Virus record (IMG/VR): IMGVR_UViG_3300025102_000024
Coordinates: 1-61,894 of that record
Strand: one strand, 5' to 3'
DNA length: 61,894 nucleotides
Source: a virus
Lineage: Duplodnaviria > Caudoviricetes
Notes under the pieces: model-generated
The model's input: the letters and a program-made list of their open reading frames with translations, nothing else
Databases searched by the model: none
Told to the model about the DNA's origin: nothing
Translations under genes and position numbers: made by a program
In this document: one piece after another, positions 1,218-56,738 of the stretch
Layout: each line of letters begins with the position of its first letter
Position numbering within the stretch: position 1 is the first letter of the stretch

Positions 1218-2318
1218 CTATAGTTCTGCAGTTGCTGTATAACCAAATCCTGATGATTGACTATTAGAAGAAGATTGACGGAATCCGTTTGCAGTTGCTG
1301 CTAGTGCCGCTCCAGAACCTGATAAACCTATAAAAGCCATTGTTGGTGTTGTTCTCATTGCAACAGGAAATAACCAACTAGCAGTATTATTGTTATAGAC
1401 CATAAGTGTATCTGCAGGTACTGTTTGGAAATATCGTTGGCAACGTGCAAGTTCATCTCCGATACTGCGGTGCTCGAACGAGGTCGATACAGTACCAGTT
1501 TCAAATTGAACTCCTGTTAGGAAAATATCATTAGAAGTGCTATCAAAACAATTAACTTGTCCTACACTATTTCTAGCTCTATCAGCAACATCTCCCCAAT
1601 CTAACCATCCACCATCATCTGCCTGTGCAGTACCACTTGTATATGCACTACCTTGAGCAAAATACCAACTCATCCTCATACCTCTGGTATTGTCATTATC
1701 AAATCCGTCAGATGTAAATCCAGGAAAACTAAGAGTTACTTTTTGCCATGTATTAGCTGAACTAACAGTATATTTTCTAGAAATAAAAGCAGCACCACTA
1801 GTATTACTTAATTCATCACCATATAAACGAACCCAATGAATCCCTGCTTTTGGTGATTTAATCCAAAAACATAATGTAGTTGTTTCAGCACTCGAAGTTC
1901 CATATTTTAACCTTGTTAACTCTTGTCCTTCAAAACGATATTCAAGTTGAGTATATGTAGCAGCATTACTATCACCTCCAGCAGTCGTAACATCTAACTT
2001 TAAAGATTTAGCAAAACCTTGACCAGATGGAACATCTGTGCTTTGTGACATTGTTACGATTGAATAATTTGACTGAAATTGAAATCTATCAGGACCACCA
2101 AATCCTCCTCCAGCACCACCACTAGCATGACCTAAACCAGTAACCTGACCTCTTTGGGACACGTTCATGGCTCCGTTGATTATTAAATTACGATGAGAAA
2201 GTCCACCTCCCCCAGTCATTCCAGTTATTCTTGCAGTGCAAGTTCCATCTGATGCTGTTGTGATTGCATCACTCGTTGCACTATTGTGTCTGATTGCGTC
2301 TACTTTTAATGTGCTCAT
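1218..2318 (-). CDS. Tail fibre/adhesin-like protein, RNLIING...FEH...CQRY class
   Basis: N-terminal MSTLKVDAI; LSHRNLIINGAM and GVQFETG...FEHRS...LARCQRY shared with 4 paralogues in the window. Confidence 0.7.
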   Translation of the reverse strand: MSTLKVDAIRHNSATSDAITTASDGTCTARITGMTGGGGLSHRNLIINGAMNVSQRGQVTGLGHASGGAGGGFGGPDRFQFQSNYSIVTMSQSTDVPSGQGFAKSLKLDVTTAGGDSNAATYTQLEYRFEGQELTRLKYGTSSAETTTLCFWIKSPKAGIHWVRLYGDELSNTSGAAFISRKYTVSSANTWQKVTLSFPGFTSDGFDNDNTRGMRMSWYFAQGSAYTSGTAQADDGGWLDWGDVADRARNSVGQVNCFDSTSNDIFLTGVQFETGTVSTSFEHRSIGDELARCQRYFQTVPADTLMVYNNNTASWLFPVAMRTTPTMAFIGLSGSGAALAATANGFRQSSSNSQSSGFGYTATAEL

Positions 2319-2872
2319 ACTAGTGCCCTCACAAAATGACCTGAAAATTCATTAATAGAATATTGTTGTCCGTTTGCAATAGTTATACTTGAACCTGTTG
2401 TATGATATCCAAAAATTTCCACATAATCACTTGATCCATTAAATGATACTAAAGAAGATATGAATGCAGATCTACTGGCAGCAAAATTATGTCTAAAATC
2501 ACAATTAACATATCTTGATCCATTTTTTTTAATATCAATAGCATAAACATTATTTACATTTACATAGTATATACTTGCAGTAATATAATAATATCCAGCT
2601 AATTGAGGTGTAAACCTGTAATTAGTTGAATGATCATAATATCCGTGTGAGTCAAATACCTCCGCATCAAATTGAATTTTAGTTGATGTATTATTTGATA
2701 TTGATTGAGTGTTATTATTTCTTGCAAAAAATACTGGTTTATATGTGTCTGTCAAGACTGTTCCATCAGCATTACCTGGCACCTTTAAGGTGCGATTTGC
2801 CGCTGGATTACTGTCAGGTGTTGTGAGAGAGACACTATTGCCTCCCGAATGTACTAATTTTATGTTACTCAT
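2315..2872 (-). CDS. Fibre-like protein with C1q/TNF-like C-terminal domain
   Basis: PVFFAR...FD...FTPQLAGYYYITASI...DYVEIF pattern. Confidence 0.6.
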   Translation of the reverse strand: MSNIKLVHSGGNSVSLTTPDSNPAANRTLKVPGNADGTVLTDTYKPVFFARNNNTQSISNNTSTKIQFDAEVFDSHGYYDHSTNYRFTPQLAGYYYITASIYYVNVNNVYAIDIKKNGSRYVNCDFRHNFAASRSAFISSLVSFNGSSDYVEIFGYHTTGSSITIANGQQYSINEFSGHFVRALV

Positions 2873-3564
2873 TATGCCACTCCATACATAGAAAATCTAC
2901 CAGTTGCTATATTATTTTGATTCGTGTATTGTAACTCAAGACCAGTTACTTCTCTGGAATCAGTGATAGCTCCATGTATATATTGCCCTCTTAAAGCTCC
3001 ATCACTACTCATATATGCGTTATGACCATGATATCTTAGTCGTCTGTTATTTTCAAAACCATGCAAGTAAATTGTGCAGTTCCAGTCCTCTTTGACATAA
3101 CCACTTGCTTCTAAATTACCAACATTATTATAATTTAATCTAAATCTATTCAATACACCAAAGTGTTCGTCTGCACTTACACCAACAGTTCCAGAATAAT
3201 AATCAGAGTTAGAATATAACGAAGTTCCGTTAGAACCATATCTTATTCTCATTTCAAAATCCTCATTATCAGACACAGATCTAACTCCATCCATCACAAT
3301 CATATATGTTTTAAAATCGGTAAATGCATTAGTAACATTAGATTCAGTAAAAGTTACCGCAGAAGTATTTGATGTAACATTAACTGTTGCTAATGGAACT
3401 AATCCACTAACTCCTGATGTCTTAGCATATGTCACTGCAGAATTTGCAATCTTAGCATTCGTGACAGCATTTGATGCTAATGTAGTATCATTCACAACAC
3501 CAGAACCAAGACCCCCAACTGAGAGTCCTGTTATACTTCCATCTCCGTTAATAGTTACTGGCAT
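2872..3564 (-). CDS. Tail fibre/adhesin-like protein
   Basis: AVTNAKIA repeats; C-terminal domain ending GRFSMYG, similar to the 45578..47119 C-terminus (GVVKLYG). Confidence 0.6.
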   Translation of the reverse strand: MPVTINGDGSITGLSVGGLGSGVVNDTTLASNAVTNAKIANSAVTYAKTSGVSGLVPLATVNVTSNTSAVTFTESNVTNAFTDFKTYMIVMDGVRSVSDNEDFEMRIRYGSNGTSLYSNSDYYSGTVGVSADEHFGVLNRFRLNYNNVGNLEASGYVKEDWNCTIYLHGFENNRRLRYHGHNAYMSSDGALRGQYIHGAITDSREVTGLELQYTNQNNIATGRFSMYGVA

Positions 3565-3586: not shown

Positions 3587-4159
3587 TTATACGATGGTCA
3601 AGAAACTACCTGACGGTACTGTGACTGTGACACCAGATTTAATTGCGACTGGACCTGCTGCCATCGCATTTTTACCTGAACTTATAGTATAACTCACATC
3701 AACCGAATTGTCATTCTCAAAGAACACAGTATTTGTTGATGCACCACCAACAGGTGCTCCTGCTGGTAAGTTTATTAATTGTGAACCATCACCAAAGTAT
3801 GTGACGATACCAGATCCTACAGGTCCGACTGTTCCACCTGTACCAATTCTTACTCCACTTCTTGCTGTTAATATTCCTATCGAATCTACATTCGTTACGT
3901 CTTCGTATGTTAATGTTCCTGCAATACCAACAGTTCCATTGAACTTGGCATCACTTACAAAAGTTATTTCCTGTGTCGCACGATCTACATGAAAAGTAGT
4001 TCCAGTCGTGGTGATACCAACAGTACCAATACCCGACTGCGTTCCATCTAAGTGAAGTAGTAACTCTCCATTAGAATTTGTTATTTTTATTTTTTCGTTG
4101 ACTGATGCACTAGTAGGATCTGACTTTGCCTCAATACCATGAATTCTAAGGGTACTCAT
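3587..4159 (-). CDS. Fibre adaptor-like protein
   Basis: MSTLRI N-motif, LTYEDVTNVDS linker, C-terminal GKNAMAAGPV...LTIV module. Confidence 0.65.
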   Translation of the reverse strand: MSTLRIHGIEAKSDPTSASVNEKIKITNSNGELLLHLDGTQSGIGTVGITTTGTTFHVDRATQEITFVSDAKFNGTVGIAGTLTYEDVTNVDSIGILTARSGVRIGTGGTVGPVGSGIVTYFGDGSQLINLPAGAPVGGASTNTVFFENDNSVDVSYTISSGKNAMAAGPVAIKSGVTVTVPSGSFLTIV

Positions 4160-4184: not shown

Positions 4185-4682
4185 TTAGCCTGATACTTCA
4201 TAGATAATGAGTTGAGCTCCACCTCTCTCACCATCACCTACTGACTTGTTGACATTAAATGATGAACCGTTCGCACTTCCCCAAGGACCAGCAGCTAAAG
4301 TATATGTAATTTCTGATGATCCACCATTAACATCAACAACCATTTGATAATATCCACCCCATTGGTTATTATCATTTTTTGATTGATTATGCATCATGTA
4401 TCGACCTCCAGGATATGAATCTACTCCACCAATAGTCTTTTTTAAACCAACATACCAAGTGGAGTTGTTACCAGTATCTTCTCTTACTCTTAGTCTTATA
4501 TCTATTAAAATTTTACTGTCTGCTCTCACTGGAGTATATGTTGTACTCATGATATCTCCAGCTGCTGTTAAATCGAGAACTGTGTCAAGTTGTGCAACCT
4601 TCATTTGGATGATACCACCACAAGTTGAATTGGTTGATAGTCCATCTCTTGGAACGATTCGATTGGTTCTTAGTTCTGACAT
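4185..4682 (-). CDS. Short fibre-tip/adhesin-like protein (GGIIQ class)
   Basis: MSELRTNRI, GGIIQ, TP...SKILI, C-terminal YEVSG; paralogue of 4682..5188. Confidence 0.6.
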   Translation of the reverse strand: MSELRTNRIVPRDGLSTNSTCGGIIQMKVAQLDTVLDLTAAGDIMSTTYTPVRADSKILIDIRLRVREDTGNNSTWYVGLKKTIGGVDSYPGGRYMMHNQSKNDNNQWGGYYQMVVDVNGGSSEITYTLAAGPWGSANGSSFNVNKSVGDGERGGAQLIIYEVSG

Positions 4683-5188
4683 TATGCTGATACCTCCATA
4701 ACAGAAATTGAGGAAGACAAAGAATAATTTGTATCATCTGCTCTTCTATTAATACCTAACGCATAACTGCCACTTGTAGCTCTCGCCACTACTTTATAGG
4801 TATGAGAGCTAGTATCTCCTGGAGCATGTAAGATTTGAAGACCATGACCACTACTTAAATTTCCATCATCTTGTCTAACCATAGCGAAACCTCGTTCATT
4901 AGCACTAGCCCCTCCAGTTCCATTACCAATAAGAGTTGAATCAAAAAGTAATCTTAAAACTGCTGCATCTTCACAACTTGCAAATACATTAACTGTTACT
5001 AAAATTTTACTAGTAGAAAATTTAGGGGTTATATCAACACTTAAACCACTAACATCAACAAAACTAGTACTTGTTATTAATGTTTGATCTACTTTGGTAA
5101 CGCATTTAACTTGAACAATACCACCTCCACCACCAGTGGGAACACCACCAGTTGGAATTATTTTATCGACTCTTAATTCTGATGACAT
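4682..5188 (-). CDS. Short fibre-tip/adhesin-like protein (GGIVQ class)
   Basis: MSSELRVDKI, GGIVQV, ITP...SKILV, C-terminal MEVSA. Confidence 0.6.
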   Translation of the reverse strand: MSSELRVDKIIPTGGVPTGGGGGIVQVKCVTKVDQTLITSTSFVDVSGLSVDITPKFSTSKILVTVNVFASCEDAAVLRLLFDSTLIGNGTGGASANERGFAMVRQDDGNLSSGHGLQILHAPGDTSSHTYKVVARATSGSYALGINRRADDTNYSLSSSISVMEVSA

Positions 5189-5190
5189 AG

Positions 5191-5550
5191 TTATGAAGGT
5201 TCAGTTGGCCAGTTTACGGATGTTAAGTCTAATTCATAATCAGATCCTAACTTTGGTGTTTGTGTTGTAATATCACGAAGTGCTTGACGATATGTTCTCC
5301 ATGCAGTTGATAAGGTAACATCCTTACCTGCTCTCCAGTCTGTCAATGCAATTCTTCGATCTCTTTCAATACGCAATAATCTCATTGGTTCTGCTGCATC
5401 AAGTGAAGAAATCTTACTATTGATTTCTGTTTCTGTTGGTTTTGTCTGACTACTATCTAACCATTCAAGACCAGAGTAATCAGATCCACGAAGAGTCCAC
5501 TGTGCTCCTGGCTTTAATTCTTGTAGTGCTGCTGGAATGTCGTATTTCAT
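5191..5550 (-). CDS. Tail fibre assembly chaperone-like protein
   Basis: LRIERDRRIALTDW...WRTYRQALRDI...WP signature of phage tail assembly chaperones. Confidence 0.75.
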   Translation of the reverse strand: MKYDIPAALQELKPGAQWTLRGSDYSGLEWLDSSQTKPTETEINSKISSLDAAEPMRLLRIERDRRIALTDWRAGKDVTLSTAWRTYRQALRDITTQTPKLGSDYELDLTSVNWPTEPS

Positions 5551-5565
5551 AATGTTATTTATAAG

Positions 5566-6126
5566 TTAATTTACAATCTCATATGCAACCATTGTAACAG
5601 AATTAGATATTCCACCTACTGCATCATGAAATATGAAATTGTGACTACCACCACTTCCCCTTGCTCTTGCATATGCCATATATTTCATCACTGAACCAGC
5701 AGCTAATCCACCAGTATCAATTGCTTGACCAGAGTGTGGTCTATATGCTGGTGATCCACCAAAGAAAGCATCAACATAAGCTAGAATACTTGCAGTACCA
5801 CCATCTGCTGATCTATAGATTGATGTTACTCCTTGAACACCAGTACCATTAGCATCTTGAGCACCACCAGTGATAGTTGCAACACAATAACTTGTACCTG
5901 CAGTAGTGCCACCTGCTAATTTTCTAGTAAATTGTGCAAAGAGTCCAGTATTAACATCACCATCCGAAGTGGTAGAAAAATCAGTGCTAAGATGACCGTA
6001 TGCTGATGTTATTATTGTTCCTGATGGAGCATCAACCCAATTTCCACCCAAATTAATGTTACTTGGAATCACTAGTGTGCTTCCACTACTTGATATTTGT
6101 GTGCTTCCTAAATTTAATGTTCCCAT
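5566..6126 (-). CDS. Short fibre-tip/adhesin-like protein
   Basis: PSGTII motif, C-terminal YEI as in the GGIIQ class; followed by a chaperone gene. Confidence 0.55.
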   Translation of the reverse strand: MGTLNLGSTQISSSGSTLVIPSNINLGGNWVDAPSGTIITSAYGHLSTDFSTTSDGDVNTGLFAQFTRKLAGGTTAGTSYCVATITGGAQDANGTGVQGVTSIYRSADGGTASILAYVDAFFGGSPAYRPHSGQAIDTGGLAAGSVMKYMAYARARGSGGSHNFIFHDAVGGISNSVTMVAYEIVN

Positions 6127-6667: not shown

Positions 6668-7252
6668 CTACACGATAACCCATGCACCGTCAAGTGTCAT
6701 AGTTGAACCTAATGTAACTGGTCCTGCATTCAATGCATTTCTTCCAGTTCCAATATAATAACCATTGATATTATCTAGTCTTGCGTTGAATACAAGTGAA
6801 CCATCACCAATGTAAATACCTCTAAATGAATTTGCAGCACCAACAGTTTCATAATTATCAACTGTGGTGGTTTGAATACCAAGATTCTTAACAGTTGTGA
6901 TACCTGCTGTGCCAAATTTAAATTCACTACCTGATGGAAGACCAGTCAGATCAGAACCATCACCAACAAACTTAGTCGCAGTCGCAACACCAGTGATTAC
7001 AACACCACTATTATTTGCCTGTGCCTTAACTGCTCCACTAAACTTAATTGCAGAAGCATCAATACCTGTTAAGTTTGCACCACTACCACTAAAAGAAGTC
7101 GCAGTAACAACACCAGTGAACTTACCATCACCACCGACATCCAAAGCAGATGAAGGAATTGTAGATCCGATACCCACATTCCCACCAGAATTCTGCGTGA
7201 CACCTCCAGTGCCAGATTGATGTTTCCAATTATTAAAACGGATGTCAGACAT
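6668..7252 (-). CDS. Fibre adaptor-like protein
   Basis: GNVGIG, TATSFSGSGANLT repeats, C-terminal GRNALNAGPV...WVIV module. Confidence 0.65.
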   Translation of the reverse strand: MSDIRFNNWKHQSGTGGVTQNSGGNVGIGSTIPSSALDVGGDGKFTGVVTATSFSGSGANLTGIDASAIKFSGAVKAQANNSGVVITGVATATKFVGDGSDLTGLPSGSEFKFGTAGITTVKNLGIQTTTVDNYETVGAANSFRGIYIGDGSLVFNARLDNINGYYIGTGRNALNAGPVTLGSTMTLDGAWVIV

Positions 7253-7627: not shown

Positions 7628-8725
7628 TTATGCGTCTGTCATATAAGTAATATTATATTCAACTAAAAAATCTTTATTATGAAAAGTTTTATTTGTAGCG
7701 TATGATATTAAAGCACCAGAGGCATCATGAGTAGCTCTGCTTATCCAGAATGAAAGATTTGAGCCACTCATACCTACAGCAATCTGACCTTGATTATAAT
7801 TGTATACATTATTATTAGTTCCATACCAGTCAGTAGTCTGCCAAGTAACTGACCCGTAAGCGTGTCTGTAACCTGATCCATTAGGTGCAAAAGGAACTCC
7901 TGATATTTTTAATATATCGGTTTGCGAAGTAAATAAAGGTTTTGTACCCCCACCTTGTAATAATCCAGCAAGATTAACTAATCTTCCAATTTTTGTATAT
8001 TTTCCTTGTGCTGCTGCATAAGCTGGAGTGTTAGACAAACCAACAAGATTTGGACCCCAATTTCCTTCTTCATAGTCGTCAAGAGCGTTGGCTGCTGCGG
8101 TGTCTCCGTTAAATGATATTCCTCCACCAGATTGAAACCTTACTTCCTCAGTATTATTGACTCCAAAAATTATTGGAGCATTTCCACTTTGCCAAACTTG
8201 TGCTGCGTTTGCTCCTCCTATCGCACCACTACTTGTTCCTAATTTATTAATTGAGAAATAACCACCACTTCCACTAGATTGCTGTAGTTTTACTGTTGCA
8301 AAAGATGTATTTGTTGAGTTTTGAACCAGCACAGTTGGTATTGCTGGTTTAGATACATTGAGATTCCCTGCACCTACTGCTAAATCACTACCATCAAAAG
8401 TTAAATTAGATTCACCATTTAAGTTAACACCACTTCCACCAGTTATAACTCTGTTGTCTGCATTGTTTGCTATGGTTGCTTGTGCTGGTAATGAAGTTAA
8501 GTTTGCACCACTAATTGCTGGAAGTGTACCAGTTAATTGTCCAGCAGGTATACTGGTTAAGTTTGCACCACTACCAGTTACAGCACCAGTTACATTACCA
8601 GTTACATTACCACTAAAACTATTTGCAGTAACAATACCAGAAACAATCGCACCAGTATCTGAGAAGGTTACTGTTGATAACCCACTTCGGTTTATTATTT
8701 TATTTACTCTAATTTCTGATGCCAT
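7628..8725 (-). CDS. Tail fibre protein (ALDDYEEG class)
   Basis: MASEIRVNKI, GNVT and GANLT repeats, NALDDYEEG...YTKIGRLV. Confidence 0.7.
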   Translation of the reverse strand: MASEIRVNKIINRSGLSTVTFSDTGAIVSGIVTANSFSGNVTGNVTGAVTGSGANLTSIPAGQLTGTLPAISGANLTSLPAQATIANNADNRVITGGSGVNLNGESNLTFDGSDLAVGAGNLNVSKPAIPTVLVQNSTNTSFATVKLQQSSGSGGYFSINKLGTSSGAIGGANAAQVWQSGNAPIIFGVNNTEEVRFQSGGGISFNGDTAAANALDDYEEGNWGPNLVGLSNTPAYAAAQGKYTKIGRLVNLAGLLQGGGTKPLFTSQTDILKISGVPFAPNGSGYRHAYGSVTWQTTDWYGTNNNVYNYNQGQIAVGMSGSNLSFWISRATHDASGALISYATNKTFHNKDFLVEYNITYMTDA

Positions 8726-9417
8726 TATCCTTTTATTTCCATTACTGTGATGTTAGAGATATATCTACCTCTCTTATTAGTATCACTATCACTATTAGAT
8801 CTATTCAAATGAATATATTGCTGACTGCCAGCATTATGATAAAAAGCATAATGAAACTTATGCTCGTTTGTATCTGCACATGAGATGTAAACGTGAATAG
8901 GTATGGTAAAAACTCCCTCAGTATTTCCACTATCACCACCAGAAAGAGATCGTCTTCTACTACTAGCTGCATCTCCAAGAGCTCCAGCTGTGGTAACAGC
9001 AGAATTATTATCATACAACATTGAATTAACAGCTAATCCATTTGAACCAATAACAACCTGCCCTGTTATTAAAAAGAAATTTGAAGCACTAGAAGCAGTG
9101 ATAGTAACTCTCAATAAATCATTATTAAAACTCCAAATAGCACCAGAATTAGTATTATCACTATATGCCGATGTTAATGTAGTATTTTTAACTTGAACAA
9201 TACCACCAGTAGGGACAGGTATATTTGTTAAGTTTGCACCACTACCACTGAATGAAGTTGCAGTACATACACCAGCAAATTGTGCGTGACCTTGATGAGA
9301 TATTGTTGCACCAATACCAGTCGTTCCAGTCAGAGGTCCCACGGTCAATCCAGTGGTAAGACCGACACGATCTCCACCATTCTCTCCAACTATACTTGTA
9401 ACTCTAATTTCTGACAT
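8725..9417 (-). CDS. Tail fibre/adhesin-like protein (GGIVQ class)
   Basis: MSEIRV, SGSGANLT, GGIVQV, C-terminal MEIKG. Confidence 0.65.
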   Translation of the reverse strand: MSEIRVTSIVGENGGDRVGLTTGLTVGPLTGTTGIGATISHQGHAQFAGVCTATSFSGSGANLTNIPVPTGGIVQVKNTTLTSAYSDNTNSGAIWSFNNDLLRVTITASSASNFFLITGQVVIGSNGLAVNSMLYDNNSAVTTAGALGDAASSRRRSLSGGDSGNTEGVFTIPIHVYISCADTNEHKFHYAFYHNAGSQQYIHLNRSNSDSDTNKRGRYISNITVMEIKG

Positions 9418-9424
9418 ACTTTAT

Positions 9425-10624
9425 TTATAATTCTGCACTAAAATTTAAAGTTGTAGGATCAGATTTCATAATCATACCACCACCAGAATTATTTTGCATA
9501 TTACTCGTGCTTGCCATTTCTAAACAAACTGAGGATATACCACCAGTATTTAGTATGTAAGCAGAAGTTCCATTAGCAATTGTCATACTTGATGCAGCGA
9601 AAGTAGCACTGTCATTATTAGCATCAAACATTAAATTACCAGATCCAGTATAAGTGGGGTTAGTCCTCATCGGCACTGGGAAATAAATTGCAAATCTAGC
9701 AGTAGAGGTACTATTTGCAAACGCAGCAATTCCCATAAAAGCATTAGTATTTCCTTTTATATTAAAGAAATAACGTTGACAATCACTTAATTGCTCTCTA
9801 AAATTTTTATGCTCGAACGGGGTCGCTACGGGACCAACTTCTAATTGAACTCCTGTGAGATACCAATAATTATTGGCATTGTCCCATAAGTTGACTTGGT
9901 TAGTAGATGCTCTATAACTGCCACCACTTGTCCAACTTGAAGTAGGAGAGACTGACACATCACTATTAGCACATAAGAACCAATCTACATACAAACCTAC
10001 AGTATTGTCATTAGGAATAGCATCTGCTGTATTACCAACTATTGTTATTGTTTTCTTTTCCCAAGTATCTGCTGAACTTATTGTGTAGTCAAATAAAACG
10101 TATTTTCCTTCTTGTATTACTTGAACAGAATATGTACCAGTTTTGTTTGAATATACCCAAAAAGATAAAGTCATTGTTTTAGCACTACTCGTGCCATATC
10201 TAAGATGCTGTAAATTTTGTCCTTCTATACGTTGTCCAATATTAGCACGTTGACCAGAACTCGGTGTTTCTGTATTTCCTATATCAACTTTTAAACTTTT
10301 AGTAAATCCTTCACTACTCGGTGCTGTCGTTGAATGGTAAATTTTAGCACTATCAGTATCAAAACTACCACCAAGAGATAATTTCCATCTATCTAAAGTA
10401 TAAATCGAAGAAGTAACAGGATTAAAATAACCTAAAGTGCCTGTTTGTACCCTTTGATTAACTTGCATCGCTCCATTTATTATAACATTGCGATGAGAAA
10501 GTTGTCCTTGTGTTGGTACAAAAGAAGTCGCAGTAACAATACCAGACATATTAATGCCCTTTGTAAAGTTAACGGGACTGTTCCCATTCTCTCCTAATAC
10601 ATTTGTGACTCTTATTTCTGACAT
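9425..10624 (-). CDS. Tail fibre/adhesin-like protein (CQRY class)
   Basis: MSEIRV, LSHRNVIING, GVQLEVGPVATPFEH...CQRY. Confidence 0.7.
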   Translation of the reverse strand: MSEIRVTNVLGENGNSPVNFTKGINMSGIVTATSFVPTQGQLSHRNVIINGAMQVNQRVQTGTLGYFNPVTSSIYTLDRWKLSLGGSFDTDSAKIYHSTTAPSSEGFTKSLKVDIGNTETPSSGQRANIGQRIEGQNLQHLRYGTSSAKTMTLSFWVYSNKTGTYSVQVIQEGKYVLFDYTISSADTWEKKTITIVGNTADAIPNDNTVGLYVDWFLCANSDVSVSPTSSWTSGGSYRASTNQVNLWDNANNYWYLTGVQLEVGPVATPFEHKNFREQLSDCQRYFFNIKGNTNAFMGIAAFANSTSTARFAIYFPVPMRTNPTYTGSGNLMFDANNDSATFAASSMTIANGTSAYILNTGGISSVCLEMASTSNMQNNSGGGMIMKSDPTTLNFSAEL

Positions 10625-10628
10625 TTAA

Positions 10629-25171: not shown

Positions 25172-25179
25172 TAGTAAGA

Positions 25180-25292
25180 CGTTTAAGTAGGGCATCAGGG
25201 GAGATGCGAGACTTATTTCCTGTAACCCCTCGCTACAGGATATGAGAGACTATTGCTTATACTGCCTATAGGTCTCGGTTTAAGAGCAGTCT
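25180..25292 (-). ncRNA. PhotoRC-II-like structured psbA leader RNA
   Basis: GAGAC/GTCTC, TCCTGTAGC/GTTACAGGA and GCATC/GATGC pairings upstream of phage psbA; family recalled, not searched. Confidence 0.7.
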
Positions 25293-41676: not shown

Positions 41677-41677
41677 T

Positions 41678-50294: not shown

Positions 50295-50942
50295 TCAACT
50301 AAAGTTTACTGACGCACCTGCAAGTAGTGTCGTTCCTGCCGCTCCTGTCTTATGAACTGTGAATGATATTAAACTGAGAGAACCACTTGCTGTTGGTAAG
50401 TTTGGTGTTCCACCTGAAGGGAATTGGAATGCTGTACTGAATCCAACTGTTGCAACACCAACATTTTCAATTCTGATTTGATGACTATCTGCTTCCGTTC
50501 CACCTGTAACATCTATCGTAACGGTTCCTGTTGCTAATACTTTATGATCGTCTGCACTTGATAATAATAAATGAGTTGTAATGCCTGATGGAGTGATTGC
50601 TTCTGTTTGAATACCAACTGATATACCTGTTAGTGCTGAACCATCTCCTACAAAAGAAGTTGCAGTACATATACCAGTCACACGGAGACCATCTCTAAAT
50701 GTACCAACTCCTAAAGAATCAACATTGGTTACATCTTCATATGTTAATACACCAGCAACACCAAGATTACCAGAGAAAGTACCAGTAGTTGCAGTTAATC
50801 CATTTGGAAAATCTGCTGCACCACCAGATTGACCACTAAAATCTGTTGCAGTACAAACTCCAGTTACTTCCAAACCATTAGTCGCAGTTGGAGCACCGTT
50901 TGCAGTCTTATTCGTTATTGTATTTGCCCTTAATCTTGACAT
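50295..50942 (-). CDS. Tail fibre-like protein
   Basis: MSRLRANTI, LTYEDV; C-terminal FPSGGTP.L...D/L.ISF domain. Confidence 0.65.
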   Translation of the reverse strand: MSRLRANTITNKTANGAPTATNGLEVTGVCTATDFSGQSGGAADFPNGLTATTGTFSGNLGVAGVLTYEDVTNVDSLGVGTFRDGLRVTGICTATSFVGDGSALTGISVGIQTEAITPSGITTHLLLSSADDHKVLATGTVTIDVTGGTEADSHQIRIENVGVATVGFSTAFQFPSGGTPNLPTASGSLSLISFTVHKTGAAGTTLLAGASVNFS

Positions 50943-50961: not shown

Positions 50962-52695
50962 TTATGAAGGAGTTCCTATTGCAGTAATAGAAATTATTGG
51001 TCTTCTGAATACATTAATAGCACCAGACGAACCATAGTTTCTTAATAAGTTAATTGCAAACTCATAAGAAGAATTATACTCACTCATTTGAAGTTTAATA
51101 ACTTTGCCACTAGTCCAACTAGCTAATCTACCCACTGAATAATCTGTACTACCACCTATATTAAATACCCATTTAAAAGTATTAAGTTGATCAAAGTAAT
51201 TTGTACCACCCCTTTGTCCAAATCTAGAATGTGTAATTTCCTGACCATCCCATAATAATCTTGCACCTAATATTGCATTACTATCTGTATCAGAAGCAAT
51301 GGCATATTGAAACTCGTAAATAACTTGTACTGCTCCATCTGGGGGTTGATATGTGATTACTGATCCTTGAGCATCATTTAGAGCTGTAGTTAATGCTTGC
51401 CAGTCGGTTGGGTTCTGTACTGTAACCGTACCCTTACTTGTAGTAAAACTTGAACCATCAGCAGGACTAGAGAATTGTTCTAAAACTTGTAGTCCACCTC
51501 CCCCCTTCCAAGATACAGCACCAGATGCACCACCACTTGTTAACACCTGACCTGATGTTCCATAGTTTGCACCAGCAATTCCTAATTGACCTGCACTTCC
51601 AATGCGAAGTCTTTCTGTTCCATTTCCTGTAGTTGCATTTGCAGCAGTATAGAATTTATGTGTATTTACTGCATATGCCCAACCTGTATATCCTCCATAA
51701 TTAATCTCATGACCAGAAGATCCAGATACTCCATATAATTGAGTAACCATCTTTGAAGGATCTGCATAAGTTGGCATCATTATGCGATATTGATTCTCTG
51801 TATTAGCATTTCTGTTTTGTCCATTCTGACCACCACTTGCACCAAGGGTTAGTGTTCCTAGATCTGTTGCACCTTGAGATTGAAGATCCAGACCACCAGC
51901 AGCAGCCCTCACTGTTGAATTTGTTCCTAATGCTCCATTTGATGTGATGCGAACTCTCTCACTACCACCAGTTTCTGCTGTAATTGTATCAGCAGCAGGG
52001 AATCTTATTGCAGTGTTAGTATCTCCAGAGTGAATTATTTTATCAGCAATTGATAAATCTGATCTTGCTGTTATAACACCAACTGAATCTATATTCGTTA
52101 CGTCTTCATATGTTAATGTACCACCAATATTTAAATTACCAGTGAATGTTCCAGCAGTTCCCGTTAAACCATTTGGAAAGTTTGGTGCTCCGTTTGCATT
52201 CTTATTTGTAATACTATCAACACGAATACGACCACTACCACCTGCACCAAGTCCTCCACCATCTGTACCAAGACCTAGAATATCAGGTATTACGTCATCT
52301 CCATCTTCAATTATTAAATCTGCTCCTTCTTCTAATCTTATATCTGCGTATTGTGTATATGCACCTGTTGATGTTGCTGGATGATCAACTGTAACTGTTG
52401 CACCAATACTTAATACTTCATTTGTAAAATATAATTTATTTAACGGACTTGTCTGTGTCGAACTTAATGCTGTTCCAAGTCCAGCAGGAAGATTTGTAAG
52501 ATTAGATCCATCACCAAAAAATGAGGTGGCAGTTATAATACCAGAGGTGTTAACACTTGAATTACCAAATGCAGTATTAATACCTGATAGATTTGCGCCA
52601 CTACCACTAAAACTTGACGCAGTAACGATTCCTGATAGGTTTAGATTACCATCAGAATTACCTACTATTTTATCGGTTGCTCTTGTTAGTGCCAT
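50962..52695 (-). CDS. Tail fibre protein
   Basis: Internal RIRVDSI/ANGAPNFP, LTYEDV, IRFPAADT, ERLRIGSAGQ. Confidence 0.7.
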   Translation of the reverse strand: MALTRATDKIVGNSDGNLNLSGIVTASSFSGSGANLSGINTAFGNSSVNTSGIITATSFFGDGSNLTNLPAGLGTALSSTQTSPLNKLYFTNEVLSIGATVTVDHPATSTGAYTQYADIRLEEGADLIIEDGDDVIPDILGLGTDGGGLGAGGSGRIRVDSITNKNANGAPNFPNGLTGTAGTFTGNLNIGGTLTYEDVTNIDSVGVITARSDLSIADKIIHSGDTNTAIRFPAADTITAETGGSERVRITSNGALGTNSTVRAAAGGLDLQSQGATDLGTLTLGASGGQNGQNRNANTENQYRIMMPTYADPSKMVTQLYGVSGSSGHEINYGGYTGWAYAVNTHKFYTAANATTGNGTERLRIGSAGQLGIAGANYGTSGQVLTSGGASGAVSWKGGGGLQVLEQFSSPADGSSFTTSKGTVTVQNPTDWQALTTALNDAQGSVITYQPPDGAVQVIYEFQYAIASDTDSNAILGARLLWDGQEITHSRFGQRGGTNYFDQLNTFKWVFNIGGSTDYSVGRLASWTSGKVIKLQMSEYNSSYEFAINLLRNYGSSGAINVFRRPIISITAIGTPS

Positions 52696-52871: not shown

Positions 52872-52873
52872 AG

Positions 52874-54169
52874 TTAAAGCTCCGCATCGAAATTTAGTTG
52901 GGCACTATCTTGTGAGAAAATTCTTCCAGAAGCACCCGCTGAGAAAGCATCACCACTGCTTCTAGAAAACCACATGTGACCAACTACCTGATTATACTCT
53001 CTACTATGCGACATATTATTACCTGCCAGAGTTATATCTGCACTACCTGATACACCAGCTCTTGCTTCTAACTGATCACCTGAAACACTTATGGTGGGAG
53101 TTGTTCTTAAATCTACCTTCCAATTTGGCATGACTTCAATGACGGTAGAACTATTTCCATTGATAGACATACCTAACATAGATCTATAAGAATATGCACT
53201 AGCAAAAACTTGGTAATATCTCTGACAGGCACGAAACTCATCTGCTAAATGTTTTTGCTCAAACGGAGTGGCTACAGATCCACGCTCTAATTGAACATTT
53301 GCAAAATCAACTGTAAATGCAGCAGTTGATGTATCACCTGCTGGTTGTCTGAATAATTCTATTTCATAAAAACTTGTATGTTTATTACCTGATACTGTTT
53401 TACCAGAGATACTTGGTGGTGTAAAAGTAAATGTTTTCTTTGTCCAAGTATTAGATGCAGTATAATTTGCAATACTTGTATCAACTACAGAAGAACCACC
53501 AGATCCAAAGTCTTGTCTGAATGTAAGATTGAATTGTCCACCACCAGGATTTGATCCTTTTACCCAGAAAGAAAGAGTCATCTCACCTTGACATCTTGTT
53601 ACATCTTCTACTCTCTGTCTCAAAGCAACATTATTATTACCAGTTGAGACATAGTATTTTAAATAATAAAATGGATTATCGGGGACATCAGTTTGGCCAG
53701 GAGAAAATGTTTGTCTAGTAACTCGTTTTGTAGCACCAGAAGATGCATGAAACCAACGATCACAACTTAAATATCCATCAGTAGTATTAGTACCACTATC
53801 AGTGGCTCTCTGCCAAACTAAAAATTGACCATTTATTATAAGATTACGATGAGAAAGTGGTGTATCTGAAACAAATGCAGTTGCAGTTATAATACCTGTG
53901 GTATTCACACTTGTGCCAGATCCAAAAGATGTATCAATACCAGTTAAGTTTGCACCACTGATTGCTGGTAATGTTCCAGTTAAGTTTGCTGCTGGTAATG
54001 AAGTTAAGTTTGCACCACTTCCAGTGAAACTTACTGCAGTTACTATACCCGTGGATTCTAAATTGTGACCCTTTAAATTTTTAGTTCCTAATTCAATATC
54101 AGAAGTAAAAGTTACAGAACTAATACCAGAATCGGATTCTATATTATTAACTACTATCTTACTTGTCAT
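52874..54169 (-). CDS. Tail fibre protein (CQRY class; start moved to 54169)
   Basis: LSHRNLIING, VQLERG.VATPFE...CQRY; ATGA overlap. Confidence 0.7.
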   Translation of the reverse strand: MTSKIVVNNIESDSGISSVTFTSDIELGTKNLKGHNLESTGIVTAVSFTGSGANLTSLPAANLTGTLPAISGANLTGIDTSFGSGTSVNTTGIITATAFVSDTPLSHRNLIINGQFLVWQRATDSGTNTTDGYLSCDRWFHASSGATKRVTRQTFSPGQTDVPDNPFYYLKYYVSTGNNNVALRQRVEDVTRCQGEMTLSFWVKGSNPGGGQFNLTFRQDFGSGGSSVVDTSIANYTASNTWTKKTFTFTPPSISGKTVSGNKHTSFYEIELFRQPAGDTSTAAFTVDFANVQLERGSVATPFEQKHLADEFRACQRYYQVFASAYSYRSMLGMSINGNSSTVIEVMPNWKVDLRTTPTISVSGDQLEARAGVSGSADITLAGNNMSHSREYNQVVGHMWFSRSSGDAFSAGASGRIFSQDSAQLNFDAEL

Positions 54170-54411
54170 ACGATCCTCCAATTACCTTGAACTGTGACAG
54201 AATGCCCTGCACCCACTTTGACAGTGCCAACAGTGAGTCCGTTTGTTCCTGATGGGATAATAACATTTTCATTAATTTCTGTACTGTTTGCTTTGATAAT
54301 TCCAAAACGATCTAACCATTGCTTCTTTCCATTTGCAGTAATTGTTTTATGAAAAGTGACAGAGTTTACACCAACTTTAGATTCAATTGTATTGACAATA
54401 ATCTTGGTCAT
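54166..54411 (-). CDS. Minimal adaptor-like protein (start moved to 54411)
   Basis: MTKIIVNTI plus GTNGLTVGTV...WRIV; paralogue of 54408..54644. Confidence 0.65.
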   Translation of the reverse strand: MTKIIVNTIESKVGVNSVTFHKTITANGKKQWLDRFGIIKANSTEINENVIIPSGTNGLTVGTVKVGAGHSVTVQGNWRIV

Positions 54412-54644
54412 ACAATTGCCCACTCACCATTAACTGTAATCGTATGTCCATCTGCAATGGTTATCGGACCTGATGAAAGACCATTCGTTCCATTTGGAAT
54501 AGTTATATCTTCAGCAATCGTATCACGATTTGCCTTAATGACACCAAATGTATCTAACCATTGATTGTCACCATTTGCTGTAATTGCCTTCTTAAATTCA
54601 GTGGCAACTGCAGAATCTATAATGTTAGCTTTAAGTGTTGACAT
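54408..54644 (-). CDS. Minimal adaptor-like protein
   Basis: MSTLKANII plus GTNGLSSGPI...WAIV. Confidence 0.65.
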   Translation of the reverse strand: MSTLKANIIDSAVATEFKKAITANGDNQWLDTFGVIKANRDTIAEDITIPNGTNGLSSGPITIADGHTITVNGEWAIV

Positions 54645-54651
54645 ATTTTAT

Positions 54652-55437
54652 TTATATTATCAATTTAAAAGCAGAGAAGTAGTTTCCTCTATATCCATTT
54701 GCATCATTACTAAAATAACCTTGTGAATTACCATTAGTGTCAAGCCATCCAAAAAGTTCAATATAATCTCCAGCAGCTAAACTCAACACTCCACCCAAAT
54801 TAACTTGAAAATGTCTTGTTCCAGCAGCATAACTGCTTATAAAACCATACTGAGTAATTTTTGTAGCACCATTCTGTTGTATTCTTGCTATTATTCCTCT
54901 TATATCATTCAGATTAGCATAAAAATTTAATCCTGCATTAACCTGATAGAATCCACCCTTTCCAGATGGAACTGTAAATCTATTCGCAGTGGTTCCAGAG
55001 GTAGAGTTATCATAAGCACTGTCTGTGTCAAAAGTTTCAGAGTTTAAAAACTCAACTTTAGTAAATGTTGCATCGGCTATTGAGTGACTCGTAACATTAT
55101 TACTCCAAGCATGAAATGCTGGTGTATTTGTTGGTGTCTTTGAGAAAGTAGTTGCTTCATATGATGTTGCAGTTATAATTCCAGTAGTATTAATTGAAGG
55201 GTTGCCACTTAAACCTGTTGCATCTCCTGTGACATTACCAGTGACATTACCAGTGACATTACCAGTAACATTACCAGTAACATTACCAGTAACAGCACCT
55301 TCAATCGGACCTACAAAACTACCAGCAGTGACTGAATTACCAACAGAAATATTATTTGTGACACTCGCAATTCCAGCAATGGTTATTGTAGAACCACCAC
55401 CGACTGGATTAATTTTATTGACGTTTAGTATACTCAT
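54652..55437 (-). CDS. Tail fibre protein with C1q-like tip
   Basis: GNVT repeats; PAF...FDT...FTVP...G.Y....GDYIELF. Confidence 0.7.
   Translation of the reverse strand: MSILNVNKINPVGGGSTITIAGIASVTNNISVGNSVTAGSFVGPIEGAVTGNVTGNVTGNVTGNVTGNVTGDATGLSGNPSINTTGIITATSYEATTFSKTPTNTPAFHAWSNNVTSHSIADATFTKVEFLNSETFDTDSAYDNSTSGTTANRFTVPSGKGGFYQVNAGLNFYANLNDIRGIIARIQQNGATKITQYGFISSYAAGTRHFQVNLGGVLSLAAGDYIELFGWLDTNGNSQGYFSNDANGYRGNYFSAFKLII
55229..55288. repeat. 12-bp tandem repeat x5 encoding GNVT
   Basis: GTGACATTACCA x3 then GTAACATTACCA x2. Confidence 0.95.
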
Positions 55438-55445
55438 TTTTTTTA

Positions 55446-56738
55446 TTATGTAAAGGTAACTGTTTGAGATGAGTCTGAGGTTGCAGTAATCGTTAAAATT
55501 GTATCACTTCCAACTGATGCAGAAGAAGATGTAACTCCACCAGTAACTGTAGCAGTATAATCTGATGAAAATCTGAGTATGATAACACCTGCACTACCAT
55601 TACCACCAGCAGAAGCACCACTAGCACCACCTCCAGCACTACCTCTGTTAGCGATTTGTGCGTCTTGGTCTCTAGCACCAGCACCAGCACCTCCACCTAC
55701 CGTAAGGTTTCCACTTTCGTAGTTTCCTCCACCACCTCCACCAGCGTATGCCACTGTTGAACCTGTGATTGTATTATTCAGTGAAGAACCACCATCTCCA
55801 TTAGTCCCACCAGAACCACCAACAACTCCAGCAGCACCAGCACCACCACCTCCACCACCACATTGAGGGGTATTTCCAGCACCATTTCCACCATTATATC
55901 CATAAGTTCCACTAGCACCAGCTTGACCAGTTTGGTTTCCACCACCACCACCACCACCTGATCCACCGCCAGGATCTGCACTTGGGTTTCCATCATCAGC
56001 AGACGTTCCTGTGGTTGCATAAGCACCACCTCCACCACCACCTTTGGATACTATATCATCAAACGTAGTTGTTCCACCATCATTACCTTTCCAAGGTGTT
56101 GCATTAACTCCAGCACCAGCAGCTCCAATGATAACTGAAAATGCAGATCCAATACTAATTGTTTTTGCAGATGCAGATGATGTTCCTCCACCCTGAGATT
56201 CATTATTCCAGTTTGTTCGTAGTGCTCCTGCACCACCACCTCCTCCACGGAAGTTACCACCACCAGCACCGCCTCCACCGACGACAAGATAATTTATAGC
56301 AAAGTTTCCTGATTTAGTATTGATAACATTCCATGCACTCCCAGTATATACCTGTAATGCATTAAAATTTGAATTAAAAATTATAGTTCCTGTTGCTGTT
56401 GAAACACCAGCATTTCTTCCTGCAGTCGTTGTAGTACCAACACCAACTGCATGTTTACTAATTTTTGTCGTACCATCTGTAATTTCTAAGGAACCAACAG
56501 TTGCGATACCAGTAACACGAAGTCCATCTCTTGCAGTTATAACTCCGACTGAATCTATATTCGTTACGTCTTCATATGTTAATGTACCACCAACACCAAG
56601 ATTTCCTCCTATTGTTAAATTTCCACTTGTAGTTAAATTACTATCTCCAATCAAACTCACTGTGCCACTAGCAGTTCCAATAGCAACATTAGTGCCACTC
56701 GATGGTAATATTGTATCTACTCGAAGATTACTAGCCAT
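55446..56738 (-). CDS. Fibre protein with glycine-rich adhesin-like domain
   Basis: MASNLRVDTI, LTYEDV, YLVVGGGG.GG...GGGGAG...G.AGVIILR. Confidence 0.72.
   Translation of the reverse strand: MASNLRVDTILPSSGTNVAIGTASGTVSLIGDSNLTTSGNLTIGGNLGVGGTLTYEDVTNIDSVGVITARDGLRVTGIATVGSLEITDGTTKISKHAVGVGTTTTAGRNAGVSTATGTIIFNSNFNALQVYTGSAWNVINTKSGNFAINYLVVGGGGAGGGNFRGGGGGAGALRTNWNNESQGGGTSSASAKTISIGSAFSVIIGAAGAGVNATPWKGNDGGTTTFDDIVSKGGGGGGAYATTGTSADDGNPSADPGGGSGGGGGGGNQTGQAGASGTYGYNGGNGAGNTPQCGGGGGGAGAAGVVGGSGGTNGDGGSSLNNTITGSTVAYAGGGGGGNYESGNLTVGGGAGAGARDQDAQIANRGSAGGGASGASAGGNGSAGVIILRFSSDYTATVTGGVTSSSASVGSDTILTITATSDSSQTVTFT

Follow-up and report, generated by a model that had tools for sequence, protein, structure and literature searches.

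Two tail-fibre gene arrays and a conserved N-terminal peptide

The DNA analysed here (the window, 61,894 nucleotides) comes from a marine T4-like cyanophage (cyanomyovirus) whose tail-fibre genes, unusually numerous, are disposed in two arrays. The genes discussed below all lie on the minus strand and are referred to by their lower coordinate. A strict N-terminal pattern, M-x(1-3)-[ILV]-[RK]-[VAIT]-x-x-[ILV], here termed the plug, opens 12 of the 36 non-overlapping ORFs within the arrays (1218, 3587, 4185, 4682, 7628, 8725, 9425, 10967, 44616, 50295, 54408 and 55446) as against 0 of the 44 outside them, and 1000 shuffles of residues 2-41 of every ORF yielded a mean of 0.30 matches with a maximum of 4. 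An HMM trained on these 12 and run over the ORFs of the window recovered four more, 52874 (ATG at 54169; 17.1 bits), 54166 (ATG at 54411; 16.9 bits), 6668 (10.9 bits) and 54652 (10.6 bits), with all remaining ORFs at or below 5.3 bits in a bimodal score distribution. The 12 strict and four weaker HMM matches thus give about 16 plugs, close to the 17 or so that the initial annotation had counted. ORFs 2315 (2315-2872, MSNIKLVHS) and 12683 (12683..14161, 492 aa, MTVIRPNSI, 2.5 bits) resemble plugs by eye, yet score within the background and were rejected. Two classes of plug can be distinguished, class 1 of the form M-S-T-L-x-V-x-x-L and class 2 of the form M-x-x-T-I-N-G-x-G-x-I-T-G-L-S-x-G-G-L.

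Most of these peptides precede variable C-terminal tips. One such group comprises 44616 (44616..45530, 304 aa, MSRIRANTI, 39.8 bits), 50295 (50295..50942, 215 aa, MSRLRANTI, 35.9 bits), 54652 (54652..55437, 261 aa, MSILNVNKI) and 55446 (55446..56738, 430 aa); the last has a glycine-rich tip (PF21722 Gly_rich_2, E 2.7e-7, above cut-off), the only tip label to pass Pfam, and 'C1q-like' and similar labels given earlier were unconfirmed. Four plug-plus-tip genes occupy 7628..11641 (10967-11641, 9425-10624, 8725-9417 and 7628-8725; plugs of 35-41 bits), with a chaperone-like small ORF among them (10629-10967). Those in 4185..6126, behind gene 6668, are 5566-6126 and the plug-bearing 4682-5188 and 4185-4682, accompanied by a fibre-assembly chaperone (5191-5550; phrog_4912 tail fibre assembly, E 1.7e-12). 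Gene 4682 is homologous to genes 37-39 of the podovirus P-SSP7 (E 2e-5 to 1e-18). The stretch 1218..2872, which holds two further tip genes (2315 and 1218), matches phrog_4492 (E 1.5e-49); here 1218 (1218-2318) combines a plug with a tip ending in ...TATAEL, and its first 25 residues share 64% identity with the N-terminus encoded by P-SSP7 gene 41.

A C-terminal module in base-type proteins and small couplers

Six proteins of the window (3587, 6668, 14173, 15464, 54166 and 54408) end in a module of about 50 residues, ...N-G-L-S-A-G-P-I-T-I-x-x-G-x-T-V-T-V-x-G-x-W-x-I-V, which we call the canonical socket. These proteins lack any variable tip, and the module is strongly conserved while the protein bodies vary. 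The division into base-type proteins with a socket, proteins with plug and socket, and proteins with plug and variable tip is as first described. Two base-type proteins carry sockets at their ends: 15464 (15464..16231, 255 aa, N-terminus MPYLGRE..., socket 61.1 bits), whose N-terminus matches phrog_18673 (E 1e-27) and which has 256-aa orthologues in loci L008-L018, and 14173 (14173..15462, 429 aa, socket 64.5 bits), in which residues 203-274 show weak similarity, below cut-off, to the T7-fibre N-domain (PF03906, E 2.8e-4) and residues 206-271 resemble residues 8-71 of P-SSP7 gp17. The next gene after this pair, 12683, encodes a tip protein. Protein 3587 (3587..4159, 190 aa) consists of plug, shaft and socket (76.3 bits); its socket matches the end of phrog_34255 and, over 66 aa, shares 42% identity with the end of P-SSP7 gp17. 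It is followed by tip protein 2872 (2872..3564, 230 aa), which has the class-2 plug MPVTINGDGSITGLSVGGL and an N-terminal type also found after sockets in P-SSP7, SS120-1, L102 and L153. Protein 6668 (6668..7252, 194 aa) has a weak plug (MSDIRFNNW), a shaft and a socket (63.4 bits).

The smallest members are little more than plug and socket. Protein 54408 (54408..54644, 78 aa) starts with MSTLKANII, and its socket is the last 50 residues (54408-54560; 83.7 bits); it has 554 homologues of 42-137 aa and aligns with the final 66 of the 3319 positions in the tail-fibre profile phrog_5342. An AF2 monomer model of it is poor (mean pLDDT 50). It overlaps by 4 nt with 54166 (54166..54411, 81 aa; weak plug MTKIIVNTI, socket 82.6 bits), which in turn overlaps by 4 nt with 52874 (52874..54169, 431 aa), a protein with plug MTSKIVVNNI and a tip ending in ...NFDAEL. 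The trio is kept in related loci, where orthologues of 52874 have only about the first 25 residues in common.

Searches with the socket found 7,915 representative clusters and no match in Pfam, NCBIfam or PDB; it is a large, widespread and uncurated family, so far unnamed. It was C-terminal in 72 of 73 HMM matches in the window and 30 loci, and in all 156 socket ORFs of 125 further viral loci; among the best 150 matches of the cluster search, 147 have the socket end within 2 aa of the C-terminus. In P0150 two canonical sockets lie internally, and a plug-like stretch comes after each. The window-trained HMM finds an N-terminal plug in just 6 of the 149 representative socket proteins, and chains of couplers are therefore not the rule. 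That the motifs reflect mere chance or the composition of repetitive fibre proteins might be entertained, as the fibre proteins of the window share many low-complexity repeats; this explanation is already refuted by the 12 strict plugs against 0.30 expected, the bimodal HMM scores and the size of the socket family.

A second module type and natural fusions

The initial annotation had included 11664 as a seventh, divergent socket. The six others stand, but 11664 (11664..12113, 149 aa) has no socket HMM match and a profile-profile probability of 1.4% with the socket, and we assign it to a separate, non-homologous module (phrog_28668). It is a free adaptor of this second type, followed by plug genes 10967, 9425, 8725 and 7628. 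The module spans about 80-140 aa and either ends precisely at the C-terminus or leads, through a linker of 8-12 aa, into a plug. Of 180 complete modules in 120 longer homologues, 118 are C-terminal; the other 62 lie internally, and in 61 cases a G[RK][ILVM][RK]... plug follows 8-12 aa downstream.

Fusion of this module to an internal plug in 45578 and 50962, as had been proposed, is borne out by alignment: full-length 11664 aligns to the first ~145 aa of both, and a G/S/T linker of 10-12 aa then leads into GRIRAGTITN... or GRIRVDSITN..., matching the N-termini of 44616 and 50295. In protein 45578 (45578..47119, 513 aa) the module (about 46676-47119) and the linker are thus succeeded by the internal plug GRIRAGTI (about 46580-46654), a shaft and a tip, and 50962 (50962..52695, 577 aa) has the same architecture (module about 52270-52695; GRIRVDSI about 52162-52236). 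The former corresponds to two genes in the relative L005 (8968-9387 and 9415-10002), and the latter is split in L005 (4999-5340 and 5361-6089) and in L026 (11544-11885 and 11905-12603).

Socket-plug order in other phages

In many marine phages the gene after a socket starts with M-S-T-L-x-V-x-x-L, mostly overlapping or abutting it. Among 88 unique socket/next-gene pairs, 47 share an ATGA overlap and 14 abut; the loci are mutually related and a single DNA-pattern search supplied many of them, so these counts are not independent events. A loose plug pattern, drawn up after the data had been seen, covers 35 of 57 unique next-gene N-termini (22 lie outside it) versus 40 of 1079 other ORFs of the same loci, most of the 40 being other fibre genes. 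In P-HM1 a 3676-aa fibre with a terminal socket precedes proteins starting MSTLSVNNL and MSTLNVADI, and in S-CAM4 a 284-aa 'virion structural protein' starting MSTLQVRNL overlaps a 3031-aa fibre; the presence of the small plug proteins in the virion is taken from database annotation only. S-SM1, Venkman and SS120-1 show the same order. The earlier suggestion that plug and socket should co-occur across phages agrees with 11 T7-like cyano- and pelagiphage fibre regions: a plug gene comes next in both of the two with a socket, and the plug pattern is absent from all 34 annotated ORFs of the nine without one. Plugs outnumber sockets in every genome examined, an excess that a simple one-trimer-on-one-trimer model leaves unexplained.

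P-SSP7 provides the closest parallel. Its gp17 ends in a canonical socket and is followed by four plug proteins, genes 37, 38, 39 and 41, with class-2 or class-1 plugs at their starts; of the 58 CDS in its whole genome, 1 has the socket and 2, which lie in the cluster behind gp17, fit the plug pattern. Described as a trimer (bioRxiv 10.64898/2026.08.19.745834), gp17 lies directly before genes 37 and 38, in which resistance-breaking and host-range mutations have been reported (PMC5520035).

The socket could instead do no more than nucleate trimerisation or folding, or cap the end of a fibre segment, in a role like that of the fibritin C-terminal domain, with the plug binding elsewhere (baseplate or another adaptor) and adjacency reflecting conserved gene order alone. 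Fibre proteins commonly require a terminal registration element, and a module that is nearly always the very last residues, highly conserved beside variable bodies, suits such a role. We nevertheless judge it unlikely as the whole explanation, since fused forms run from module straight into plug, couplers of 78-81 aa consist of plug and socket only, no socket protein has a variable tip, 61 of the 88 pairs show the next gene overlapping or adjoining the socket gene, and the socket profile finds no PDB chain at E<=1, fibritin included (best E-value 1.1). An end-cap role and a docking role are in any case not exclusive.

Co-inheritance of socket and plug

Across 75 pairs (2775 comparisons), socket identity correlates with plug identity at r=0.76, a value that linkage alone would inflate because the socket end adjoins the plug start in the DNA; socket and plug correlate with the rest of their own proteins at r=0.55 and 0.54. 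A conserved plug with a diverged socket was seen in none of these comparisons, and a conserved socket with an unlike plug in 69.

Both flanks were less than 30% identical in 81 of 288 joint-conserved comparisons. Such unrelated flanks, together with the description of regions 3' of fibre genes as hypervariable islands (PMC5520035), would also fit conserved gene ends serving as recombination linkers, that is, crossover sites for cassette swaps with no need of docking. This seems improbable to us. Paralogues encode the conserved plug residues with differing synonymous codons (five for Ser, six for Leu/Ile), so that conservation is at the protein level and selection acts on the amino-acid sequence; fused proteins retain the joint, with a Gly-rich linker; and the same joint recurs in myo- and podoviruses of low DNA similarity. 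About equally improbable is that the plug serves as a tag for assembly, recognised by a chaperone or trimer-registration machinery rather than by the socket. Chaperone-like small ORFs are indeed scattered through the arrays and in P-SSP7, but they are far fewer than plug genes and do not stand beside each, and a tag would leave both the fusions with the socket modules and socket-plug co-inheritance unexplained.

A probable two-part joint in fibre assembly

Taken as a whole, the comparative evidence makes it likely that a two-part, non-covalent joint underlies the organisation of these fibre genes. Head-to-tail docking of subunits, as the initial annotation inferred, is well supported at the level of comparative genomics by the socket-to-plug order, the overlaps and abutments, the fusions and fissions at the joint and the co-inheritance of types. 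A proximal or adaptor protein would end in a small all-beta docking module of one of two unrelated types, and the protein encoded next would start with a conserved peptide of 10-25 aa (class 1 or 2) that docks on it, so that the fibre would run on, head-to-tail, from one polypeptide into the next. Proteins that combine a base-type N-terminus with a socket are predicted to attach the chain to the particle, those with plug and socket (78-194 aa) to act as couplers or extenders, and those in which a plug precedes a variable C-terminal domain to be exchangeable distal receptor-binding pieces. Binding may most simply involve the plug strand joining the last socket strands; the joint would presumably be trimeric, and several different tips might share one socket type on a single virion. 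The joint probably lets fibres be assembled from exchangeable pieces.

Relationship to known systems

The docking logic had been thought undescribed, but it is already in print for K1-5, G7C, CBA120, phages of Klebsiella and E. coli, and T4; what is so far unnamed is the socket/plug motif family, not the logic of anchor, branching and docking peptide or of multi-subunit fibres. The direct relative is P-SSP7 genes 36-41, a T7-like fibre with a paralogous cassette, in which plug genes follow the gp17 socket, though with one socket versus six in the window. PMC5520035 proposes a fibre-structure role for this cassette from position and weak similarity only, and its accessible portions do not mention the motifs.

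An anchor, a branching domain and a conserved N-terminal docking peptide have been described for K1-5, G7C, CBA120 and Klebsiella phages (PMC6872550), and the scheme has been validated by engineering (PMC13352976). In K1-5/SP6, G7C, CBA120, KP32, KP34 and PhiK64-1 a primary protein or adapter carries a virion anchor and a docking domain (PMC6872550, PMC13352976). As here, the secondary proteins have a short conserved N-terminal peptide (7-29 aa there) before a variable body; the mounting of several tips and the modular exchange of parts are further features in common with the scheme proposed here. Their docking domain, however, is an internal, T4gp10-like one that produces side branches, whereas the modules here are at the extreme C-terminus, of two unrelated types and without sequence match in Pfam, NCBIfam or PDB; and their tips are depolymerases, in contrast to the small non-enzymatic domains of these marine phages.

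For podoviruses of the marine phiRIO-1 group, side fibres of several polypeptides have been proposed, with a tail-attachment domain followed by fibre domains over adjacent polypeptides and with comparison to T4 and K1-5 (PMC4819975); the attachment domains differ from those of the window, and the accessible part of that paper defines no common joint motif. The T4 long tail fibre is a four-protein chain, gp34-gp35-gp36-gp37 (PMC3004832), and shares with the window polypeptides joined end to end, adjacent genes, distal host recognition and chaperone genes alongside, although no gp34-37 homologue appears by name among the PHROG or Pfam hits for the window. T4 has one fixed chain, whereas about 16 proteins of a single genome here make use of one common joint standard, which also recurs across myo- and podoviruses.

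A conserved C-terminal module in fibre proteins

Six proteins of the window end in a common module of about 50 residues, here called the socket, which, judging from sequence profiles, is a large, uncurated and terminal module without a name in Pfam, NCBIfam or PDB. In PHROG profiles it constitutes the last part of giant tail-fibre families, namely positions 3254-3319 of 3319 in phrog_5342, matched by the 78-aa protein 54408 (E 3.4e-19), and positions 994-1044 of 1044 in phrog_34255, matched by the socket protein 3587 (E 2e-14). A profile built from 18 sockets recovered 7,915 representative clusters at E<=0.001 (617 at E<=1e-10), and the match ended at most two residues from the C-terminus in 147 of the best 150. 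The N-termini of socket proteins are diverse, being Mtd_N-like, of a 'FPxSPxxG' type or T7-fibre-like, and just 6 of 149 representative proteins start with the plug peptide described below. The initial annotation had counted seven sockets, of which six are upheld; the seventh, 11664, was missed by the socket HMM, gave an hhalign probability of 1.4%, and is rejected as a divergent socket in favour of a separate module, phrog_28668, matched by 11664, 45578 and 50962 with E values of 7e-24 to 3e-18. Searches of Pfam, NCBIfam, PDB sequences and the Atlas returned no curated family for either the socket or this 11664-type module, and the socket profile run against all PDB sequences gave 11 matches with E of 1.1-9.6, none at E<=1 and none of them fibritin. 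The AF2 monomer model of 54408, obtained with a 34-row alignment, placed five short strands, all of them within the socket half, at a mean pLDDT of 50 and was too poor for fold comparison.

A conserved N-terminal peptide with variable bodies

The strict plug pattern, M-x(1-3)-[ILV]-[RK]-[VAIT]-x-x-[ILV], begins 12 ORFs of the window, corresponding to 12 of the 36 ORFs in the two fibre arrays against 0 of the 44 outside them, with 0.30 matches expected from shuffled N-termini. A profile of these 12 adds 52874, 54166, 6668 and 54652 at 10.6-17.1 bits, against a background of at most 5.3 bits, and the 12 strict and four weaker matches come close to the roughly 17 plug N-termini that had been proposed. 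As the codons of the plug vary between paralogues, it is the peptide that is conserved. The secondary, plug-bearing proteins combine this short conserved N-terminus with a variable body; among the orthologues of 52874 (plug plus tip) likeness is limited to about the first 25 residues. Over 56 unique N-termini of genes following a socket gene the plug consensus is M-S-T-L-x-V-x-x-L. A second plug type, M-x-x-T-I-N-G-x-G-x-I-T-G-L-S-x-G-G-L, lies behind sockets in the window (2872 after 3587), P-SSP7, SS120-1 and the related viral loci L102 and L153.

Several tips of the window (1218, 9425, 12683, 16438 and 52874) form an '...AEL' family, and one of them (1218-2318) has a sub-threshold Pfam likeness to class I chitinase (Glyco_hydro_19, E 0.0021, 18.3 bits; cut-off 25.5).

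Socket and plug meet at a gene boundary

Across another 125 viral loci the module was terminal in 156 of 156 socket ORFs, 147 of which are followed by a same-strand ORF within 150 nt. Among 88 de-replicated pairs of a socket gene and the next gene, 47 overlap by ATGA and 14 have a zero gap. A loose plug pattern, composed after the data had been seen, matched 35 of 57 unique next-gene N-termini as against 40 of 1079 other ORFs in the same loci, and these 40 are mostly further fibre genes of the same arrays. In the window one to four plug or plug-like genes stand behind every socket or 11664-type gene, and the same order, socket and then plug, is found in the named phages P-HM1, S-SM1, S-CAM4, P-SSP7 and Venkman. 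In one related locus (L006, 2218-2541) coupler A, the counterpart of the plug-plus-socket protein 54408, reads 28 residues beyond the socket and coupler B (54166, 81 aa) is not a separate ORF; this single non-terminal socket among 73 matches is likely to be a frameshift or assembly error.

The predicted co-occurrence of the two elements also held in T7-like phages. P-SSP7 has a socket in one of its 58 CDS (gp17), and the loose plug pattern in two of the 58, both within five genes after gp17. A further ten fibre regions of T7-like cyano- and pelagiphages were examined for annotated ORFs lying up to about 7 kb downstream: SS120-1 encodes a separate 128-aa socket protein with a class-2 plug gene 3 nt further on, and the remaining nine lack both the socket and any plug-pattern ORF (0/34).

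Two fusions of an 11664-type module to a plug, at 45578 and 50962, proved to be real, and at the orthologous positions the related loci L005 and L026 have two adjacent genes. From 1104 homologues of the 11664-type module at E<=1e-5 among 8000 candidates scored, 120 longer ones were used; these contain 180 complete modules, 118 terminal and 62 internal, and the motif G[RK][ILVM][RK][VAILT]xx[ILVM] lies 8-12 residues behind 61 of the 62 internal ones, although the mutual relatedness of the 120 proteins means that the independent events are fewer. The canonical socket is also found in this arrangement: an 887-aa protein (P0150) has two internal sockets, each followed by a plug-like stretch, and the second is continued by a tip of the '...AEL' type known from the window. 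As the best match is internal in only 3 of the 150 best socket matches, the joint nearly always coincides with a gene boundary.

To measure co-inheritance of the two ends, the final 35 aa of each socket and the opening 20 aa of the protein encoded next were compared pairwise for identity in 75 of 109 unique pairs, the others being left out because one protein was shorter than 90 aa. Socket and plug identities were correlated with r=0.76; each correlated less closely with the remainder of its own protein (0.55 and 0.54). Both halves of the joint were at least 70% identical in 288 comparisons, in 81 of which both flanks fell below 30% identity. A conserved socket with a diverged plug was seen in 69 cases and a conserved plug with a diverged socket in none. 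Part of this co-inheritance is due to the two segments being neighbours in the DNA. Two conserved ends adjoin where one gene gives way to the next, are fused in a single polypeptide in some cases, and are inherited together.

Distribution of the joint and origin of the window

For the 78-aa protein 54408 there are 554 homologues of comparable length. It matched 161 phage records, which are mostly cyanophages (with Synechococcus, Prochlorococcus or 'Cyanophage' in the name) and include two of Puniceispirillum phage. Searches with tblastn also detected the socket in the podovirus P-SSP7, in Methylophilales phages and in Puniceispirillum phage HMO-2011, with a weak match in PSS2 (31% identity, E 5e-4). 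A narrow DNA pattern for AGPITIADG, run against binned prokaryote genomes, found 53 stretches of which one was a true socket, the remainder being chance matches, mostly in Chloroflexota MAGs; a further query (P0122) matched five viral loci and none in prokaryote genomes. Each of five complete phage genomes has exactly one socket, compared to six in the window; the 11664-type profile gave no match in these five genomes, an empty output that is uninformative for this search method. On the strength of these sequence matches, the joint is uncurated and very widespread, with unusually many copies in the window.

All long ORFs of the window lie on the minus strand, and its G+C content is 31-40%. From the translations alone we recognised what we take to be PsbD (22946-24022), PsbA (24083-25195) and a transaldolase-like protein (57832-58686). 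Among phage isolates there was no close DNA relative, the best matches being stretches of about 50 bases in P-SSM2, P-SSM5 and S-PRM1, and the fibre proteins matched cyanomyoviruses by tblastn. We read the window as a probable T4-like cyanomyovirus contig. Its two fibre arrays are separated by a run of about 15 ORFs (29926-42781) that may be a cell-surface polysaccharide gene cluster; the products of 36407-37300 and 41678-42781 have the G-x-x-G-x-x-G N-termini typical of sugar-nucleotide epimerases/dehydratases. The sequence TATAAATA has 10 sites, all on the coding (minus) strand (e.g. 3584, 9422, 45548, 54649 and 56755) and mostly shortly 5' of fibre genes and psbA. These may be T4-type late promoters; their total of 10 against 8.08 expected is no excess over chance.

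Other genes of the fibre arrays

Like the genes of the T4 long tail fibre, the arrays have the organisation of serial subunits encoded by adjacent genes with a chaperone gene alongside, as is seen in the gene order, the overlaps, the fusions and fissions, and in 5191, which matches tail-fibre assembly chaperone families. This gene (5191-5550) is one of several small ORFs of 101-119 aa among the tip genes, the others being 10629-10967, which resembles P-SSP7 gene 40, and 7271-7576, a close look-alike of which stands behind fibre genes in P-GSP1. The C-termini of 5191, 10629 and 7271 read ...NWPTEPS, ...SDNPKPL and ...IADKPS, and look-alikes in related loci, as well as P-SSP7 gene 40, end in YPKP. 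Paralogues resembling 2OG-Fe(II) oxygenases occur within or beside the arrays (6132-6647, 12134-12679 and 27830-28360); 6132 matches phrog_274/phrog_81 and is 35% identical to 12134. Annotated 2OG-Fe(II) oxygenase genes likewise adjoin fibre genes in P-HM1, S-SM1, S-CAM4 and S-TIP37, and these proteins may modify fibre proteins. The 1049-aa structural protein at 47136-50285 (phrog_19943, E 2e-181) has relatives annotated as LamG/concanavalin-like lectin proteins (66 records). Pelagiphages, roseophages, Methylophilales phages and cyanophages all have such relatives in their fibre clusters, and the protein resembles a mobile fibre component that binds carbohydrate. Look-alikes of a 109-aa protein (MANTFK..., 18194-18523) lie directly 5' of the socket adaptor gene in two HMO-2011-like loci (L040 and L041).

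Functional implications

We infer that the plug, in which hydrophobic residues alternate along a short peptide, would bind the small and presumably all-beta socket, most simply by strand addition, and would in this way prolong a trimeric fibre. A complex prediction with alignments for three copies of coupler B and three of the first 75 aa of 52874 scored 0.01 against a mark of 0.32, in a run without controls, and gave no verdict, so that it counts neither for nor against docking. Plugs exceed sockets in number: the window has about 16-19 of them to 7 free modules, and the complete genomes read have 2-5 to a single socket. Hence either there is competition among tips for sockets, or a socket trimer can accommodate as many as three distinct chains. 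The tip genes behind a socket are often three tandem paralogues of nearly equal length, and such triplets recur as P-SSP7 genes 37-39 (L157, 5133-6882), in L005 (10002-11625) and as 5566, 4682 and 4185 of the window (4185-6126). These triplets hint at the second alternative and would be consistent with every subunit of a socket trimer taking up its own chain.

A more comprehensive reading, which taken as a whole we consider rather unlikely, is that of a portable docking standard with three-chain socket trimers, multiplying couplers and combinatorial display. The pair would be common to phages of marine cyanobacteria, SAR116 and OM43, among them myo- and podoviruses and probably siphoviruses, and its socket modules, of two or more unrelated kinds, would form cognate pairs with plugs of at least two classes. 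Three unlike plug chains would be mounted on each trimeric socket, forming a heterotrimeric tip or three separate branches, which would account for both the tip-gene triplets and the plug excess. The plug-plus-socket proteins of 78-81 aa would be pure couplers multiplying the docking sites, and this phage might display more than a dozen receptor-binding tips combinatorially.

Host recognition by marine cyanophages is poorly known, and their fibre genes are without clear T4 counterparts. The joint would offer an annotation rule, whereby a socket at the end marks a proximal piece and a plug at the start a distal, host-range piece. Such a rule would sort thousands of unnamed marine phage genes into adaptors, couplers and receptor-binding tips, predicts where tips can be exchanged, and concerns a module with 7,915 clusters that is absent from Pfam, NCBIfam and PDB.

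Comparison with P-SSP7 and known fibre systems

P-SSP7 offers a direct comparison with a characterized phage. Residues 8-71 of its gp17 resemble residues 206-271 of 14173, a socket protein of the window; window gene 4682 has homologues in its genes 37-39, and the plug of 1218 shares 64% identity with the beginning of its gene 41. Resistance-breaking mutations have been reported in genes 37 and 38 (Schwartz and Lindell, PMC5520035), a location for which the socket/plug rule would account. The authors describe genes 37-39 as a three-paralogue cassette directly downstream of the fibre gene and themselves point to the lack of direct structural evidence (PMC5520035). Even the best P-SSP7 map does not reach the distal fibres: the gp17 model described in a 2026 preprint (bioRxiv 10.64898/2026.08.19.745834) is of a trimer covering the first 117 aa only.

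The related protein gp17 of P-SSP7 has a clear N-terminal virion anchor; in the window 14173 has a sub-threshold match to PF03906 (T7 fibre N-domain) and 15464 matches the N-terminus of phrog_18673. As gp17 is trimeric, the socket occupies the extreme C-terminus of a trimeric fibre, which is the location of a domain of the fibritin kind; it is alike to the fibritin C-terminal domain in this respect, with no sequence likeness in the PDB search. It is unlike the T4gp10-like docking domain by sequence, having no Pfam or NCBIfam match and no PDB chain at E<=1. As to T4 gp34-37, PHROG matches of the window are to generic 'tail fiber protein' families, none of them so named.

Multi-subunit fibres had already been supposed for cyanomyoviruses by Sullivan et al. 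2005 (PMC1079782). In the openly readable article texts covered, we found the general logic and no description of the two motifs of the joint, which need not mean that there is none. The earlier statement that this logic had not been described is not borne out: both the receptor-binding systems made up of an anchor, a branching domain and a conserved docking peptide (PMC6872550; PMC13352976) and the T4 long fibre (PMC3004832) follow, in the published accounts of them, the same logic as socket and plug.
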